From IMG/VR virus record IMGVR_UViG_2718217885_000015: DNA of 44,903 nucleotides. One strand, given 5' to 3'. How positions within the stretch are numbered: position 1 is the first letter of the stretch; every line of letters begins with the position of its first letter. Under the pieces are notes generated by a model, which made no database searches, was not told the DNA's origin, and worked only from the letters and a program-made list of their open reading frames with translations. Positions 589 through 37,244 of this stretch are shown here, piece by piece. The translations under genes and the position numbers were made by a program. Source of the DNA: a virus (Duplodnaviria; Heunggongvirae; Uroviricota; Caudoviricetes).

Positions 589-3500
589 TACTCAATGCGT
601 ACAAAAAGACCGATAAAGCCACGCTGAGTACCATAATTGTTACCCAGGCCCGAAAGCGCCGTGTAACGACCGGGGAAGTTGTATTCACCGGCACCGCCAA
701 TCACAACCTGCGGTGAGGATGCGTATGTCCCTGTATCACTAACCTGTGCACTCATGGCCAGAGGACCAAGACGGGAACCCGGCACAGTATCACCGAGTCC
801 CAGAGAAGCATTTTCACCAAAACTTTCTCCCTGATATACCGCCATAATCGGCACACCGACGGCCGGGTATTGGTAATATGAGAACGGACCATTACCGGCG
901 GTTGAGGACATCAGATATGCCAGGGAGTTGCCGTCATACACAATAAGGCTTGATGTTGCATTCCAGCTGTTACCACTGTAGCGATAACGCATACAATGTA
1001 TGCTGTGCTCATCCTCGTAATACTGGTTGTAGTACAGCAGCGTTTTGAATTTACGCGCTGAGTCTGAACCATCGTTATCAGAGGGTGACCACATCACATC
1101 AATGATACCGTTAAATTTCGTGGTGCCCACCAGCAGCGTGGAGGAGTCCGCAATACTGACCGCATAACGCCCCGGGGTGACTGTCTGCAGCCATATAACG
1201 AAATCAGCCTGTCCGTTAAATGACAGAGCTTCGGCGCTGGTGAATGCCTGTCCAAACCCATACATCCCGGACAGGGCCAGCCTGCCCGGTGTGCGGTCAC
1301 GGATATCACTCTGGGGTTCCATCGTCGCAGCCGCGCTCAGCTCAAGCTCCGTGCGCATGGCTTCAGCCGTGTCATGCGCCAGCAATGCGCGGCCCTTCTC
1401 TGACAGCAGAGACAGTGAGGCATTCCCGTCCGTATTGAAGTACAGAAGATTATCTGCCCGTTGCGTCAGTGCGCTGATTGCCGTTAAGACGTCATTAAGC
1501 GGTTGTTTGCCTGCCAGCGCGTTTGTGATTGTCGTCGCAAAGTTCGGGTCATTGCCCAGCGCCGCTGCCAGCTCGTTCAGGGTGTCCAGAACTTCCGGCG
1601 ATGAGCCAACCAGCGCAGCAAGCAGTTTGCGCACAAACGCTGCGTTCGCTGCTTCCAGACCGGCGGCATCATCCGGTGGGGTTGGGGTGGTTGGGGTGCC
1701 GGTGAAGGCCGGGCTGTCCAGTGGCGCTTTTGTTTTCGTCTCGTCCATGACGGTTTTGACAGCCTTTGGCGTGGCAGCCAGTTCCTCGCTGTCGTTGTCC
1801 GTATCACTACACAGTTGCACCAGACCTTTTTCTGTCGTGGAGGCATTTGTTGCATTCAGGTCATCAACTATCTGCTGCGCCTCATCCCTGTACTGTTTCG
1901 CTTCCTGCGCATTGTCTGCACCTGCATCCTGGCTGGCTTTAGCCTGTCGGGCGTATTCAGCGGCGCTGTTTTCATGCCCGAGTGCAGCATTTGCTGCATT
2001 TTCCGCGCTGGTTGCAGCTGATGATGCGGCATTATGATAAAGGCGGGCACGTTCGGCGGCATCGACTGATTCGTCCCGCGCTGTGCCTGATGACTGTGCG
2101 CTGTTTTCTGTCTCCCCGATTTTTTGGGTCACTTCAGCAATATCACTCTCTATCTGCTGATTGATCTCATCCTCCAGTTGCTCAACTTCACTGCGCAATG
2201 CCGAGGCATTAATACGATCGTTCAGCTCCTGCCCCAGCAGGGTGCTGTTTATTTTCCCTTCAAAAAAATTGAGATACACCTCAGCATCGTTACCCGGCTG
2301 GCCAACAGCCTCCACAAATGCCGATTTGCCGACGGTATTCACACTGCGAACGTAAAAATAATAATTATTGCCCGGCTCAATATCCGGTCCGGAGGCTATC
2401 CAGTACAGCGCCGTACCAAGATAGCGGGCTGTGGTTTCAACCTGCCTGATATCGATAATCCGCTTTTCCGATAACCAGAACTCAAACTGTACCGTCGGGT
2501 CATATACAGCCAGTTTCGGGACCGCCGTTATCTGAAAATACCCCGGTATCAGTTCAATAGTGACAGGCGCTGCCGGTGCCGCAATCCGGAACGATACCGA
2601 CGCCGGATCACCCTGCTGCCCCCGGGCATTTACCGCCCGGACCGTCAGCATATAACGCCCCAGCGCCAGTTGTCTGAAGCGGTATGTGGTTTCCGTCGTC
2701 CGGGCTGTGCTGACCAGCCGCTCACTGCCGTCGTCCGCTGCCACGGTCAGGCGAAGCATGAAGCTCACGCCCTTCACCACCTTCGGCGTGTCCCAGCGGG
2801 CCAGTACCTGATACTCCCCGCTGTCTGCGGTGACTTCGGCGGTAAGGTGCTGCACCGCTGGCGGTGTGACACCATTCACCGTGCCGCTCTGGTCGCCGTC
2901 AAAGTGCGCCCCGTTATCCACGATGGCTTCTTTTTCCGGTACATGCTGCACGGCAGTGATGGCATACGTGCCGTCGTCGTTCTCACGGATACTCACGCAG
3001 CGGAACAGGCGCTGGCGCAGCGTCGGCAGCTTCAGCCCCCACACGCTGTATTCGGCAACGCCGTCAGGAACACGGCTCACTTTCACCTTCATGCCGTCGG
3101 TGACGGACTGAACCTCCACGCTGACCGGATTGCCATTTCCGTCAACCAGGCTTATCAGCGTGGTGCCGGAGGATGGCAGCGTGATTTCACGGTCGAGCGT
3201 CAGCGTCCGGGTCTGGCTGTTCACCGCCAGCACACGACCACCGGTGCTGATACCGGCATAGTCATCATCACAGATTTCAATAACATCGCCCGGTACATGG
3301 CGAAGCCCTTCGGCACCCACGCTGAAGTCCACGGTCTGCGTTTCCAGCAGTTCCGTTTTAATCAGCCACAGCCCGGCGCGGTGCGCCTGCCCCCGGCTGG
3401 TACAGCCAAAGGCATCCATCTTCGTGACGTTACGACCGTAACGGGCAATGGCCTGCGTGTCCTCCACAAGCTCTGTTGCCGTCTCCCAGCCGTTGTCCGG

Positions 3501-4715
3501 GTCAATCCAGTTCACCTCAACGGCATTATGGCGGTCCTTCAGGGCGCTGAAGCTGTAGCGGAACGGCGCGCCATCATCCGGCATCACCACATTACTGCGG
3601 TTATAGGTCCACACCTTATCTGATGGTCGGTCCTGCACGAACGTCAGCGTCTGCCCGTTCCATACCGGCATACAGCGCATCGCCGAGCAGAAATCACTGA
3701 GCACATCCCACGCCTTGCGCTGTGTGGTCAGGTACGCATTACAGGTGATGCGCGGCTCCGTGCCGCCAAAACCGTCCGGCACCGACTGATCGCAATGCTG
3801 GCCGATGACATACAGCGCCCATTTGTCCACATCCGCCGCACCAAGACGTTTCCCCATGCCGTAGCGCGGATGGGTCAGCATATCCCACAGACACCAGGCC
3901 GGGTTGTTGCTGTATGCCGGCTTAAACGTTCCGTCCCAGATACCGCTGTATTGCCGCGTCTGCGGGTTATAGTTCGACGGCACCTGCAGAATGCGCCCGC
4001 GCAGATGATAATTACGGCTCACCTGCTGGCTGCCGAACTGCTCCGAATCCACCTGCACGCCGACCAGTGCCGTGTTCGGGTAGCACTGTTTCACATCGAT
4101 GATTTCAGTGTATGACGACCAGAGCGTTTTGTTCTGCAGCTGGTCTGTGGTGCTGTCCGGCGTCATCCTGCGCATCCGTATATTGAACGGGCGCGGCGGC
4201 AGGTTACCCACCACCACCGAGGCCAGATACTGCGAGGTGGTTTTGCCCTTAATGGTGATGTCTTTTTCCGTCACCCAGCCACCATTACGCTGGATCTGAA
4301 CCAGCAGGCGGACTTCCGACGGATTCCGGTCCCCCTTTGAGGTGGTTTCCACCAGTGCCTGCACACCGAAGGTAAAGCGCAGACGGTCAATGTTTGCAGA
4401 TGTGATGGTCCGGGTGATCGGCGTGTCGTATTTCACTTCCGTACCCAGCACCGTCTCGGAACCGGAGGATTCAAATCCCTCCGGCGGTGCCTGCTCCTGC
4501 TCACCTGCCCGGAACACGACCGTGACACCGGAGATGTTGGTATTCCCCTCAGTGTCCAGCACCGGCGTACTGTTCAGCAGCACGCTTTTTAATCCATCCA
4601 CCGGACCTTCAATCGGCCCTTCGCTGATGGCATCAATCACACTCAGTAACTGCGTGGACTTCAGGTTGTCCTTCGCTTCGCGCGGGGTATGCCCCTTACT
4701 GCTGCCTTTACCCAT
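588..4715 (-). CDS. J: Host specificity / central tail fibre protein J, with a side-tail-fibre-like C-terminal region
   Basis: 1375 aa; the first ~800 residues align with lambda J as I recall it (e.g. [21 protein letters not shown]); the C-terminal ~550 aa carry a conserved tail-fibre motif (TEKGLVQL...AATPKAVK...[13 protein letters not shown]) and a Gly/Tyr-rich distal region instead of the lambda J C-terminus. Confidence 0.9.
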
Positions 4716-33883: not shown

Positions 33884-34104
33884 GCTGCACCTCCGAGATG
33901 CTTCATGTTTTTTCCGGAGCGAAAGGCTATAAGCGGCATACTGACGCGGTAATTACGGCCCAGCGGTTCACAAACCACCTTCTGACATTCACGGTCAACC
34001 AGGCTAACACGTAGAACATGCCCTGCAGGCGTGGTGTACCACTGACCCGGACGAGGACAACGGAAAGTCTGATTGGTAAAACGTTTGAAAATATTCCGGA
34101 TCAT
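33880..34104 (-). CDS. Hypothetical small protein
   Basis: 74-aa ORF, apparently coupled between Rha and the O-like gene. Confidence 0.4.
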   Translation of the reverse strand: MIRNIFKRFTNQTFRCPRPGQWYTTPAGHVLRVSLVDRECQKVVCEPLGRNYRVSMPLIAFRSGKNMKHLGGAA

Positions 34105-34646
34105 TTGCGCCCCCTTACCTCTGAAGAGTTCAGCGACGAATGAATAAGACGGGCAAGAAATGCCGCATCGTTAATTCGGTCATACAGACTTACAGCCAGC
34201 GGTGATTCAGCTTTTTCCAGCATGGGATAAAGCTGCTGCAACCAGACCTGATGAATTGATGAAATGTAGGAATAGAGTACGCTGGCGTTATGTGCAACGT
34301 CGCTCGGTACAGCGGGCTTTGAAAGCTGTTTCTCCATCTGGTTAAAGGCATTGATGTATGCCTCTTTGAACTGGGCAGCACGTTTACCCGTGAAACCCAT
34401 AGCAAGAAACGCAAAACCGTCGCGGGTTATTTGATAGCAAGGTAGTTTGCGGCCTGATGCGTCGATGTACTCACTGGGCTGAAAATTCAGCTCAATAAAT
34501 TCGGCAGAGCATTCAAGAGACGCAATTTTTTGAATGACGTTTTTGTGTTGTTTGCCAAAATAACTAGCAACAGCCAGAGAAGAAGTAACAACTTTGCCTG
34601 CAATAATGCAAAGTTCAGGTTGTACTAAGGCAGGGATCGTAGCCAT
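34101..34646 (-). CDS. rha: Rha-family phage regulatory protein
   Basis: Start at MATIPALVQPEL with a GGAGG ribosome-binding site 8 nt upstream; Rha signature region (GKVVTSSLAVASYFGKQHKNVIQKI...YQITRDGFAFLAMGFTGKRAAQFKEAYINAFNQME). Confidence 0.7.
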   Translation of the reverse strand: MATIPALVQPELCIIAGKVVTSSLAVASYFGKQHKNVIQKIASLECSAEFIELNFQPSEYIDASGRKLPCYQITRDGFAFLAMGFTGKRAAQFKEAYINAFNQMEKQLSKPAVPSDVAHNASVLYSYISSIHQVWLQQLYPMLEKAESPLAVSLYDRINDAAFLARLIHSSLNSSEVRGRK

Positions 34647-34649
34647 GAT

Positions 34650-35249
34650 GGCAGCCTCCGTATGCAATGGATAACTTCCACCACCGGAAACGCCAATTTC
34701 GCTGGTGGTGAACTGAGCAGGGTTGGCGTAACCGGCGCATACGGAAACCGGCGCACCTTTCGGTGCCCCCACCCAGCCCACCATAATTTGGGTATAGCTG
34801 AGTTGTAGCAACAAAAAAGACGCTAACGCGCCAATTGTCGCCGTATGCAATTCCAGGACGCCAATCCCGGCACCCGCTTTATAAGGTGCCTGAACAGTGT
34901 AACGTCCCGGAATGGCAGAATCAATGTGCTGGTGGTCCTTCACACTCAACAAAATCACGCCTGAATTTCCACAAAGGGCTAAAGCACTCATGCGGGTAGT
35001 CTTTGCGAAGATAGATAACGCGCTGTGTTTCTGGCTCCCAACGAATAACATGAACATAAAGTCCTCTTCCGTCACGAAACCAGCGGTTAAGTTCCTGCAC
35101 AACTCGCCACCCACAGTCAGGTAAAGTTCTCTGTGGTTACTTACAGCCAGGAGATTTGGTAATCTGCATTCATGCCGTAACAACAGGTGTTCAGCGACCC
35201 TGACCACCAGCTGTTGCGACAAACGGTTATTTGCCGTTAAACTGTTCAT
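34650..35249 (-). CDS. Uncertain: upstream in-frame part of the 382-aa ORF (separate gene, N-terminal domain of a longer Rha protein, or non-coding)
   Basis: In-frame ORF continuing upstream of the Rha start; its ATG at 35249 overlaps the stop of the cII-like gene, which suggests coupling, but the sequence has no recognisable domain. Confidence 0.25.
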
Positions 35250-35809
35250 GCGTTAGTTTCTCCACAGACACAAAACGCCACGACGCCCGGAGCTGCACAC
35301 TCGCGGGCGTCACTCTTTTCTGGAGCGCAAAAGATTTTGTAGACCAGTGCTGCATGCTCCTGGAGCTTCGAAATTGACAGATACAACTCATCATTAATTG
35401 CTGTCTGCTCGTGTGGCTCCACTACCCCATCTTCGATTGCCGAACGAATCTGCTTTGAGTAACTCCCGATCTGTTCGATGACTTCCAGCAGGCGCTGGTT
35501 TATATCGGCGTTCTCTACTTCCTCAATTTCAGGAAGCGATACAAACACCCCACCAGCAGACTGTGCGACAGCATCCGCAATGTAGTGAGTGCCAGCCGCG
35601 CGCTGTAAAATCATTGCCCATCCCAGCGGGAAAATCTGATCGCCATCTGCACGAAGGCGGTTGAATAAAGCGTTCTCTGTTACATCCAGCCACTCAGCAG
35701 CTTCAGCGTAACCCCCCGGCAACGCCGCGATAGTTTTTCTGACAGCTTTCACGTACCACTCAGGCTGTTTTTCTACTTTCCAGTGATGCTTACCCACGGT
35801 TAGCCTCAT
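35246..35809 (-). CDS. CII-like / YdaT-like regulatory protein (second gene of the early-right operon)
   Basis: 187-aa ORF immediately downstream of cro; assignment by position and weak resemblance only. Confidence 0.45.
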   Translation of the reverse strand: MRLTVGKHHWKVEKQPEWYVKAVRKTIAALPGGYAEAAEWLDVTENALFNRLRADGDQIFPLGWAMILQRAAGTHYIADAVAQSAGGVFVSLPEIEEVENADINQRLLEVIEQIGSYSKQIRSAIEDGVVEPHEQTAINDELYLSISKLQEHAALVYKIFCAPEKSDARECAAPGVVAFCVCGETNA

Positions 35810-35840: not shown

Positions 35841-36041
35841 TTAATCTTTCGGATAGATATCCGGTCTTAAGTCAGATTTCGTAATTGCACCTGACGTGCA
35901 TTGCTCAAGTTTTTTAGCCAGCACAAAACTGGCTTTTTTATAACCATTGAAAACCAGCCGTAAGTAGCCTGGTGTTGAGCCAACTTTTCCGGCCAACTCG
36001 CCCTGCTGTTCTTTGGTTAAAGAGTCCCAATACGCTTTCAT
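35841..36041 (-). CDS. cro: Cro-like repressor (HTH)
   Basis: 66 aa from MKAYWDSL, with an AAGAGG ribosome-binding site; divergent from cI across the operator region. Confidence 0.7.
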   Translation of the reverse strand: MKAYWDSLTKEQQGELAGKVGSTPGYLRLVFNGYKKASFVLAKKLEQCTSGAITKSDLRPDIYPKD

Positions 36042-36044
36042 ACA

Positions 36045-36067
36045 ATATGTACCTCTTATATACATAT
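36045..36067. promoter_or_regulatory. Operator-like palindrome ATATGTA-N9-TACATAT (OR)
   Basis: Perfect 7-bp inverted repeat with a 9-bp spacer in the cI-cro intergenic region. Confidence 0.5.
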
Positions 36068-36096
36068 TACATGATTAAAATGAACCTTCAAGATAC

Positions 36097-36115
36097 TTGT
36101 ACCCTATCGGTACAA
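36097..36115. promoter_or_regulatory. Operator-like palindrome TTGTACC-N5-GGTACAA (OR)
   Basis: Perfect 7-bp inverted repeat 17 bp upstream of the cI start. Confidence 0.5.
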
Positions 36116-36131
36116 AGGTTTTAATTTCGTT

Positions 36132-36806
36132 ATGAAAACAGTCCATGACATCCGGCGGTCTAACGCCAGAAAACTGAGAGATGGTGTTGGCGGGAATTCT
36201 TCCTTTGCCACCATGATTGATCGCGAACCAACCCAGACCAGCAGGTTTATGGGAGATGGTGCTACTAAAAATATCGGTGACAGCATGGCACGGCACATCG
36301 AAAAATGTTTCGACCTGCCTGTCGGATGGCTTGATCAAGAACACCAGACAACGAACATCACAAAAAAACCTGATGTTTCAATCACTAATAAACAAATAAC
36401 GCTAGTCCCTGTCATATCATGGGTACAGGCCGGAGCATGGAAAGAAGTTGGCTATTCTGAGGTTGATTTGAGCACAACAGAAACATATCCCTGCCCTGTA
36501 CCCTGTGGCGAAATGACTTATATATTGAGGGTGATTGGTGATTCAATGATTGATGAGTACCGTCCGGGGGACATGATTTTTGTCGATCCAGAAGTACCAG
36601 CCTGCCACGGCGATGACGTTATTGCATTGATGCACGATACAGGTGAAACCACCTTCAAAAGGTTGATAGAAGACGGGACACAGCGTTATCTCAAAGCATT
36701 AAACCCCAACTGGCCTGAGCCTTACATTAAGATAAACGGTAATTGCTCTATCATTGGTACAGTTATTTTCTCAGGAAAACCAAGAAGATACAAAATTAAA
36801 GCCTGA
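36132..36806 (+). CDS. cI: CI-type prophage repressor (N-terminal HTH, C-terminal S24 LexA-like autopeptidase)
   Basis: 224 aa; Ala-Gly cleavage site (VQAGAW), catalytic Ser (GDSM) and Lys (FKRL) of the S24 domain. Confidence 0.85.
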   Translation: MKTVHDIRRSNARKLRDGVGGNSSFATMIDREPTQTSRFMGDGATKNIGDSMARHIEKCFDLPVGWLDQEHQTTNITKKPDVSITNKQITLVPVISWVQAGAWKEVGYSEVDLSTTETYPCPVPCGEMTYILRVIGDSMIDEYRPGDMIFVDPEVPACHGDDVIALMHDTGETTFKRLIEDGTQRYLKALNPNWPEPYIKINGNCSIIGTVIFSGKPRRYKIKA

Positions 36807-36818
36807 TCAATGTCTATG

Positions 36819-36841
36819 AACCTGCTTCGGCAGGTTTTTTT
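36819..36841 (+). terminator. Rho-independent terminator after cI
   Basis: Stem AACCTGC/GCAGGTT with TTCG loop, followed by a T8 run. Confidence 0.7.
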
Positions 36842-36845
36842 ATAC

Positions 36846-36878
36846 TTGACAATGTACCATTAAGATACATAATGTACC
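36846..36878 (+). promoter_or_regulatory. Candidate early-left promoter (PL-like) overlapped by an operator-like repeat
   Basis: -35 TTGACA (36846-36851), 17-bp spacer, -10 ATAATG (36869-36874); spacer contains ATGTA-N9-TACAT and direct AATGTACC repeats related to the OR half-sites. Confidence 0.5.
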
Positions 36879-37001
36879 TGCATAAGATATCGAACAGGCA
36901 GGACGCCCACGAAGTAGCCGTCCGGGGCATACGAAGACCGGAATGATTCGTAAATAAAAAAGCGCCCAAGTGGACGCTTCACTTTTGAACTGGATTTATA
37001 A

Positions 37002-37244
37002 TCAATTATTTTCTTCATAAATGTTTTGTAATGTATTTATGAGATTTGGTATTTCTTTTATGGGAAAAGAATATATTGGACTTTCGATAATTTTATCAGA
37101 TTCAAATGGTGGTTGTTTGCAGGACAGTTGAACTATAACTGAATTATGATCTTTAACTGGCACACAGTACCAACCACATACATCAAAAACAGGAGTATTT
37201 TGATTATCCATTATGTCCTCGACAACTAAAAACACTGCGTACAA
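37002..37244 (-). CDS. Hypothetical protein (AT-rich moron antisense to the early-left transcript)
   Basis: 80-aa ORF in an AT-rich segment, followed on the minus strand by a hairpin plus U-run (about 36957-36990). Confidence 0.35.
   Translation of the reverse strand: MYAVFLVVEDIMDNQNTPVFDVCGWYCVPVKDHNSVIVQLSCKQPPFESDKIIESPIYSFPIKEIPNLINTLQNIYEENN

Follow-up and report, generated by a model that had tools for sequence, protein, structure and literature searches.

The e14/SfV immunity module, shared by the cryptic prophage e14 of E. coli K-12 and Shigella phage SfV and with ymfK (cohE) and ymfT (croE) as its cI and cro genes, is already known and already annotated, and the region described here is a copy of it. 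It lies in the window, by which we mean the whole stretch of phage DNA that was analysed (44,903 bases). Its CI is 99.6% identical to that of SfV, and the DNA running from cro through OR and cI to PL is 94–96% identical in SfV, SfIV, cdtI, twelve Stx2c-converting phages, Ayreon and 2H10. The chromosomes of E. coli 09-00049 and OkiPb01715 carry an identical (100%) sequence, and the region is found at an identity of at least 90% in 1323 of 5426 complete E. coli genomes; identical copies in the E. coli genomes of RefSeq are annotated as ymfK and ymfT. The GenBank record of SfV contains a 'putative operator region' that corresponds to window positions 36047–36115, i.e. it runs from the first base of the site that we call ORa to the last base of ORc, both taken in their 19-bp forms. 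Mehta, Casjens and Krishnaswamy (2004, BMC Microbiol 4:4) reportedly identified the binding sites of the e14 repressor and Cro by their similarity to SfV. In a review table YmfK is listed only as an 'SOS-sensitive repressor' and the target of CroE is given as the 'croE operon' (PMC8249747). Binding data for the repressor (footprinting, ChIP) were not found in the searchable literature, where the operator strings had no match either and TGTACC as an 'operator' led to primers only.

The order of genes and control elements in the window (cII, cro, OR, cI, PL) is that of a lambdoid immunity region. The genes, and the gap in which OR lies, are:

35246–35809: CII-like gene of the CP76 type, the next gene after cro.
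35841–36041, minus strand: cro-like gene of the YmfT/CroE type (66 aa) with a YdaS-like helix-turn-helix; its start is the ATG at 36041.
36042–36131: OR, the 90-bp gap between the divergent cI (plus strand) and cro (minus strand).
36132–36806, plus strand: cI, of the YmfK/CohE and SfV CI type (224 aa).

The C-terminal part of CI is an S24 autopeptidase (Peptidase_S24 in Pfam, E 1.3e-26) with PDB matches to lambda CI, UmuD and LexA, and a predicted cleavage site, Ala100-Gly101, together with the dyad of Ser138 and Lys176 can be read from the translation. Searched against Pfam, the N-terminal domain gave no family and no helix-turn-helix, even at E 10, while phmmer matched it to the SPC32H repressor (5d50, E 9e-4) and to a CI N-terminal domain (7nkv, E 0.05). 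The helix REPTQTSR occupies residues 31–38, where the recognition helix is expected. A single-sequence AlphaFold model of the repressor was unusable (pLDDT 31), and a search for homologues of the 75-aa N-terminal domain gave nothing beyond fragments of CI itself. Cro matches YdaS_toxin (E 1.5e-5) and HTH_3 (E 0.0065), neither of which passes its Pfam cut-off; its gene is annotated as ymfT in RefSeq and is co-inherited with cI in all relatives.

A preliminary description of this DNA, made from the letters of the window, placed the immunity operators in two palindrome families shared between OR and the PL-like promoter. For OR it named ATATGTA-N9-TACATAT (36045–36067) and TTGTACC-N5-GGTACAA (36097–36115), and for PL it named ATGTA-N9-TACAT (36852–36870), within the 16-bp spacer of the promoter, and direct repeats of AATGTACC (36851–36858 and 36871–36878, 20 bp apart). 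Every one of these sequences is present where it was said to be. The division into two families, on the other hand, does not survive: TTGTACC-N5-GGTACAA can be written as TTGTA-N9-TACAA and thus has the motif and spacing of ATGTA-N9-TACAT, so both OR palindromes are instances of TGTA-N9-TACA with identical spacing and there is a single motif. The operator is 17 bp long, with the consensus TGTACC-N5-GGTACA. It was also right to place two palindromes in OR, but a third and weaker site there, ORb, had been missed. The sites and the promoters that they overlap are:

36048–36064 (36047–36065 with flanks, 19 bp): ORa, TGTACCTCTTATATACA, an exact TGTA-N9-TACA (21.8 bits, rank 3 in the matrix scan below).
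36064–36091, minus strand: putative promoter PR for cro, with the -35 hexamer TTGAAG (36086–36091), a 16-bp spacer and the -10 hexamer TAATAT (36064–36069).
36081–36097: ORb, TGAACCTTCAAGATACT, a weaker site with 3 mismatches to the consensus (11.3 bits, rank 4).
36097–36132, plus strand: putative promoter PRM for cI, with the -35 hexamer TTGTAC (36097–36102), a 17-bp spacer and the -10 hexamer TTTAAT (36120–36125).
36098–36114: ORc, TGTACCCTATCGGTACA, a perfect palindrome with 0 mismatches to the consensus (21.9 bits).
36818–36837, plus strand: intrinsic terminator of cI, a stem-loop followed by a T-run.
36846–36873, plus strand: PL-like early-left promoter, a strong promoter by sequence, with TTGACA (36846–36851), a 16-bp spacer and CATAAT (36868–36873), matching the consensus at 11 of 12 positions.
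36853–36869: OL1, TGTACCATTAAGATACA, an exact TGTA-N9-TACA with the best score of the window (23.7 bits).
36873–36889: OL2, TGTACCTGCATAAGATA, of which only the left half (36873–36878) is a good half-site.

A search for further copies leaves little doubt that the palindromes exceed chance. TGTA-N9-TACA has exactly three matches in the 44,903 bases, all of them flanking cI, while 0.39 are expected per window and about 0.001 for the ~150 bp concerned. The half-site TGTACC by itself is too common to mean much (26 copies in the window, 13.9 expected). We also scanned the window with a weight matrix built only from ORa, ORc and OL1 of relatives other than E. coli. Its top four positions were 36852 (23.7 bits), 36097 (21.9), 36047 (21.8) and 36080 (11.3), which are OL1, ORc, ORa and ORb in that order; the next best position scored 5.7 bits, and none of 200 shuffles reached 21.8 bits. 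By contrast with these strong sites, 23.5% of the shuffles reach the score of ORb somewhere in 45 kb, and the full OL2 scores -3.5 bits (rank 28), so that in this window alone ORb and OL2 are without significance.

Conservation was assessed at 19 loci found by a scan of one genome per species, with repressors 73–99% identical to the one in the window and with about 15 genera represented (Escherichia, Klebsiella, Pseudocitrobacter, Atlantibacter, Leclercia, Phytobacter, Enterobacter, Pantoea, Trabulsiella, Kluyvera, Limnobaculum, Rahnella, Edwardsiella and others). The OR and PL regions of these relatives align without gaps, and in the alignment the half-sites are invariant and the centres vary. 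Left OR half-sites reach 2.0 bits per position, and the distances from site to site and from each site to the ATG of cI are fixed. At the loci of 17 relatives, 73 of the 75 positions with at least 10 of 12 consensus matches fall at -84, -51, -34, +721 or +741 from that ATG. A second set consisted of 80 viral contigs in which the N-terminal domain of CI is essentially identical; as the scan kept only near-identical copies, this set is useful for polymorphism and not for distant co-variation. Polymorphism in it is concentrated in the five middle base pairs of each site and in the linker between ORa and ORb, while the half-sites hardly vary. The few differences between the window, SfV and Ayreon follow the same pattern of site centres and linkers.

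Within OR, each site lies over elements of transcription or translation. ORa overlaps the last base of the PR -10 hexamer, the start region of PR and the Shine-Dalgarno sequence of cro (GAGG, minus strand). In the 19 relatives its TGTACC and TACA are invariant and its consensus is TGTACC-TCCTG-TGTACA, where the TCC of the centre is constrained because it is the complement of the cro Shine-Dalgarno sequence. ORb carries the PR -35 hexamer (TTGAAG, minus strand) in its centre; this centre, 43 bp upstream of the cI start, is a candidate position for PRM activation. Its consensus in relatives is TGAACC-nnCAA-GGTACT, at the fixed offset of -51, with an invariant TGAACC and with GGTACT as the commonest right half; an equivalent site is carried by Pseudomonas phages. 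The CAA of the centre is partly conserved since it is the complement of the TTG in the PR -35 hexamer. It should be noted that part of the conservation of ORa and ORb is explained in this way, by the overlapping cro ribosome-binding site, PR -10 and PR -35. ORc directly abuts ORb and overlaps the -35 hexamer and spacer of PRM. Its consensus in relatives is TGTACC-nnnnn-GGTACA, with both halves invariant and only 0.47 bits in the centre.

The putative PR agrees with the sigma-70 consensus at only 8 of 12 positions, and the promoter scanner passed over it; the TTG of its -35 hexamer and its -10 hexamer are conserved in relatives. In PRM, TnTAAT is conserved and the distance from the -10 hexamer to the ATG is 6 nt in nearly all relatives. 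To judge from this spacing, the cI mRNA would begin with the A of the ATG at 36132, or close to it, and would be leaderless. The ymfK mRNA of e14 has been reported to be leaderless by differential RNA-seq (PMC4681348, Fig. 2E), which agrees with our placement of PRM, the e14 sequence from the -10 hexamer to the ATG being identical to that of the window. Rfam gave only three sub-threshold matches, among them a spurious SAM-III over OR (E 0.12).

On the other side of cI, the cI terminator is present in most relatives, with compensatory changes in its stem, and is annotated in SfV and Ayreon. The PL hexamers are invariant in the 19 relatives save for one -35 substitution (CTGACA in the locus L018), and the annotation of phage Ayreon lists PL as a promoter. 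OL1 takes up the whole PL spacer and extends into the adjoining ends of the two hexamers; its half-sites are invariant and its centre is variable, both in the relatives and in the viral contigs. With the exception of the -35 hexamer of L018, PL in the relatives reads TTGACA(A/G)TGTACC-nnnnn-G(G/A)TACATAATGTAC(C/T). OL2 spans the expected start point of PL, with its centre 20 bp from that of OL1. Its left half, TGTACC, is nearly invariant in relatives, and its right half is weak: most of them have GAAACA or GCAACA, a few have GATACA, and the window has AAGATA. The direct repeats noted earlier at PL are real in that AATGTACC occurs twice, but the second copy is the left half of the weak OL2 and not a separate element. 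Further copies of TGTACC inside cI (36422, 36497 and 36756) were considered as extra operators and dismissed, being unconserved at synonymous positions in relatives.

Outside the operators, a leader at PL (36893–36950, plus strand), the first segment transcribed from this promoter, is conserved across genera and forms a covarying stem in which 4 pairs show compensatory changes. It has no match in Rfam and no second copy elsewhere in the window, and a kinship with the HK022 put RNA was rejected, as no sequence similarity to the put region of HK022 was found. SfV-like phages have been reported to be without N (PMC3851460), and this covarying RNA might conceivably be a cis-acting element that controls early-left read-through in phages of this kind.

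The motif was also followed beyond the close relatives, together with the CI helix. REPTQ(T/I/V)SR (residues 31–38) is invariant in 19 of 19 relatives. Edwardsiella phage EPP-1, whose N-terminal domain is 66% identical, keeps the helix, the motif and the layout, and the motif and layout are kept as well in the P. aeruginosa phages vB_Pae_CF67a and vB_PaeS-D14E, with N-terminal domains 53–58% identical. The repressors of these EPP-1 and Pseudomonas phages retain REPTQ(V/I)SR, with the N-terminal domain fused to longer C-terminal parts. In their OR regions TGTACC-TCCnn-GGTACA lies over the GGAGG of the divergent gene, and next comes a hybrid site with a -35 hexamer in its centre (TTGACG, other strand); the third OR site overlaps this ORb equivalent by 1 bp in the Pseudomonas phages and abuts it in EPP-1. 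Where the helix is another one, the palindromes are others too: mEp043 (helix REPSYVSR) has the palindrome TTTACC-N4-GGTAAA, H-19B (helix VSPSQLTQ) has repeats of the TTATCA type, and homologues from Ralstonia, Comamonas and Variovorax have other helices, each with other palindromes. Such co-variation, seen at the level of sequence, is what would be predicted if the repressor sets the operator specificity. It has, however, no power to tell whether the motif is read by CI, by Cro or by both, because the divergent gene of the Pseudomonas phages also encodes a YdaS-like Cro homologue (32–33% identical, with a conserved YLR in the helix). For this reason the Pseudomonas phages were rejected as a means to tell the two proteins apart.

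Taken together, the sites are very probably the operators of a lambda-type CI/Cro switch of the e14/SfV immunity group. This reading is the best one because the sites flank cI, overlap promoter hexamers, have invariant half-sites and follow the recognition helix. The preliminary description, which had proposed that these are the CI/Cro binding sites and define the immunity specificity, can thus be followed with the amendment that they form one family. Could there still be two operator families that are read differently, one preferred, for example, by CI and the other by Cro? The arms of the OR palindromes do differ in the window (ATATGTA and TTGTACC), GATACA or TATACA often takes the place of GGTACA as the right half in the E. 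coli group, and an unequal affinity of CI and Cro for single sites is normal in lambdoid switches. We nevertheless regard two families as highly improbable. The sites have TGTA-N9-TACA in common with the same spacing, one matrix scores all of them, and ORa reads TGTACCTCCTGTGTACA in most relatives, with the TGTACC and GTACA halves of ORc. As for the 7-bp arms once ascribed to ATATGTA-N9-TACATAT, they are present, but the left outer AT is unconserved in relatives and the right outer AT belongs to the -10 hexamer of PR.

A different possibility is that only Cro (YmfT), or some other phage or host factor, reads the motif and that CI binds elsewhere. In every relative Cro is indeed inherited along with the motif, and even the Pseudomonas phages have a homologue of it. 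This is very unlikely all the same, for no other palindrome recurs at OR or PL, and lysogeny needs both PR and PL to be blocked, while the sites described here are the only conserved ones over the hexamers of these promoters. Moreover, the CI helix does not vary among phages that keep the motif and, to our knowledge, all lambdoid switches that have been characterised have operators common to CI and Cro. That the inverted repeats are RNA hairpins or terminators and not protein sites is hardly credible, even though a terminator scanner lists ORc (TTGTACCCTATCGGTACAA plus AGGTTTTAAT) as terminator-like. Their stems are invariant, without compensatory change, and the same hexamer occurs at five places, while the true hairpins nearby, namely the cI terminator and the stem of the PL leader, keep their pairing with compensatory changes. 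In addition, ORc is located upstream of the mapped leaderless start of cI and hence outside the cI mRNA, and OL1 lies within a promoter spacer.

If the sites are CI/Cro operators, the switch might work as follows. A dimer of CI (224 aa, YmfK-type) would recognise a single 17-bp palindrome via the helix REPTQTSR, and the YdaS-like Cro (YmfT-type) very probably reads the same palindrome. In a lysogen, CI bound to ORa and ORb would shut PR; these two sites lie on the same face of the DNA, since 33 bp, or about three helical turns, separate their centres. From ORb, 43 bp upstream of the cI start, CI would be in position to activate PRM, like lambda CI at OR2, and ORc would lower PRM when CI is abundant or when Cro binds. 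At PL, OL1 and the half-site OL2, with 20 bp between their centres, would together shut the early-left operon. Self-cleavage of CI at Ala100-Gly101 by Ser138 and Lys176, stimulated by SOS and RecA, would then free all three promoters. The order of affinities, cooperativity, the activation of PRM and the sharing of sites by Cro are points that we infer within this scheme, and the same applies to the role of OL2 at PL.

The centres of ORb and ORc are 17 bp apart and thus on roughly opposite faces of the DNA. Since these sites abut in such an orientation, pairwise cooperativity of ORb and ORc in the style of lambda is doubtful. The layout of the sites at OR and PL has been kept from Enterobacteriaceae to Pseudomonas phages. 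One might therefore think of a binding mode unlike that of lambda, with a higher-order assembly of CI on a 34-bp composite site and a dimer anchored by one half-site. What speaks for it is that ORb and ORc abut, that the third site is three turns off and that a lone half-site is conserved at PL; we still consider it unlikely.

The operators proposed here for the CI/Cro switch concern an immunity type that roughly one in four complete E. coli genomes carries, that of K-12 among them (as e14), and that also occurs in serotype-converting Shigella phages, a Cdt-I phage and Stx2c-converting phages. They would decide to which incoming phages a lysogen is immune and when SOS induction releases prophage genes, for instance those for toxins and for YmfM, the division inhibitor of e14. 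In the refined map a single 17-bp motif accounts for three sites at OR and one and a half at PL, each placed with respect to PR, PRM and PL, and this gives footprinting, reporter fusions and work on engineered immunity precise positions to aim at.

Among other described systems, PL of HK022 shows a resemblance, having TGTAC/TGAAC half-sites with GTACA and one operator in the PL spacer (...TTTACATTAATGAACTTTAAGTACATCAT...). However, TGTAC and GTACA are separated there by 5 bp, as compared with 7 bp here, and the CI helix of HK022, TPKAISKW, is unrelated to REPTQTSR. Operators of the HK022 type (15-bp sites with an HK022-like CI) were tried as an explanation and rejected, since neither the spacing nor helix 3 of CI fits, and the resemblance of the half-sites is probably coincidental. 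CI of Shiga-toxin phage H-19B and of phage mEp043 is homologous in its N-terminal domain (42% and 39% identical, respectively) and likewise has an S24 C-terminal domain; its recognition helix and palindromes differ, a change that is expected for another immunity specificity. Rep of Salmonella phage SPC32H (5d50) is the only solved structure that matches the N-terminal domain significantly (E 9e-4, residues 1–73). The two share the tail ...NIG..AR.IE....WLD, but they are only ~30% identical and differ in helix 3.

The likeness to lambda is one of organisation. In both, cI and cro are divergent, three imperfect 17-bp OR palindromes cover PR and PRM, and further copies lie at PL; both have a leaderless cI mRNA and a self-cleaving S24 repressor. 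The middle OR site lies ~43 bp upstream of the cI start here, and OR2 of lambda is centred about -42 from the cI start. The differences start with the recognition sequence, which is another one. OR centres are 33 and 17 bp apart here, with ORb and ORc abutting, versus 24 and 23 bp in lambda; only one and a half sites can be recognised at PL, and ORa overlaps the ribosome-binding site of cro. Furthermore, Cro has a YdaS-type helix-turn-helix instead of the lambda Cro fold, and the CII analogue is of the CP76 type.

It is with the e14/SfV group itself that the agreement is closest. No new kind of system is revealed by our analysis: this is an ordinary and widespread immunity region, in which the operators of SfV, Ayreon and e14 (MG1655) match those of the window and differ from them only in site centres and linkers. 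Compared with e14 and SfV, the allele of the window has TCTTA as the centre of ORa, ATTAA as the centre of OL1 and an unusually poor right half of OL2, and it recurs in 4 of the 80 viral contigs. The genes downstream of PL differ between the SfV/e14 group and the window because these phages are mosaic.

The CI N-terminal domain, the operators and the YdaS-like Cro form an old module that has moved across family boundaries. Phages of P. aeruginosa (CF67a, D14E and about 20 others) share it, as does Edwardsiella phage EPP-1: although the identity of the CI N-terminal domain is only 53-66%, these phages have the same operator motif and almost the same arrangement of three sites. The operator regions in these distant phages, by extracted locus, are as follows.

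L027, 1416-1483: operator region
L113, 916-985: operator region
L112, 914-982: operator region

At close range the same sites are polymorphic. In a set of 80 viral contigs whose CI is essentially identical, OR has 29 distinct sequences and PL more than 30, and almost all of the differences fall in the 5 bp at the operator centres or in the linker between ORa and ORb. Relaxed constraint alone may account for this, or selection may be at work, for instance by tuning affinity through DNA shape.

36054-36058: variable site centre
36104-36108: variable site centre
36859-36863: variable site centre
36077-36079: also variable

Hexamers TGTACC or GGTACA are enriched in the whole window (26 observed versus 13.9 expected), and three of them lie within cI.

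36422-36427: hexamer within cI
36497-36502: hexamer within cI
36756-36761: hexamer within cI

These intragenic copies are probably there by chance, since they show no conservation at synonymous positions among relatives. A weak match of the SAM-III riboswitch over the operator region (36039-36129, minus strand; 21.7 bits and E 0.12, against a gathering score of 45) is almost certainly spurious.

Downstream of the PL operator, the beginning of the early-left transcript (ACAGGCAGGACGCCCACGAAGTAGCC...GATGATTCG) is conserved across many genera, while the genes that follow it vary.

36893-36950, plus strand: PL leader, first ~60 nt of the PL transcript
~3594-3650 of locus L001: counterpart of the PL leader
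2693-2610 of locus L111, minus strand: counterpart of the PL leader

Four pairs of its 5-bp stem show compensatory changes (UCCGG/CCGGA, CCUGG/CCAGG, CCCCA/UGGGG), and many E. coli contigs carry an alternative allele of the leader (...CACAGGCAAGATT). The window holds one copy only; the leader had no match in Rfam, and its sequence is not similar to that of HK022 put. Roberts et al. are said to have described transcription-termination immunity in SfV in 2007, and the PL leader may be tied to it.

Two open reading frames are read differently in the RefSeq annotation of an identical genome.

37002-37244, minus strand: small ORF of 80 aa, within region 36959-37244
36980-36959, minus strand: terminator of the small ORF
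34101-35249: ORF of 382 aa with both Ash and Rha domains

The small ORF, which separates PL from the yfdP/yfdQ/yfdR-like early-left genes as a moron-like antisense insertion, is called in RefSeq as a 69-aa hypothetical protein. The 382-aa ORF is split there into two genes that overlap, one for a Rha family regulator and one for a DUF4222 protein. Read on the plus strand, the hairpin at 36980-36959 could weakly terminate the PL transcript after ~90 nt.

ORb and ORc (36081-36114) adjoin without a spacer, with a centre-to-centre distance of 17 bp; in the Pseudomonas phages the two sites share 1 bp. ORb always contains one GAACC-type half, which is on the left in enterobacteria and on the right in Pseudomonas. 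This geometry is unlike that of lambda and differs also from those of P22 and 434. The PL region of HK022 (locus L030, ~815-870, minus strand; ...AATGTACTATTGGTACTTTACATTAATGAACTTTAAGTACATCAT...) has half-sites, TGTAC or TGAAC and GTACA, similar to those of the window, but they are separated by 5 bp rather than 7 bp, and the recognition helix of the HK022 repressor is unrelated to that of the window's CI.
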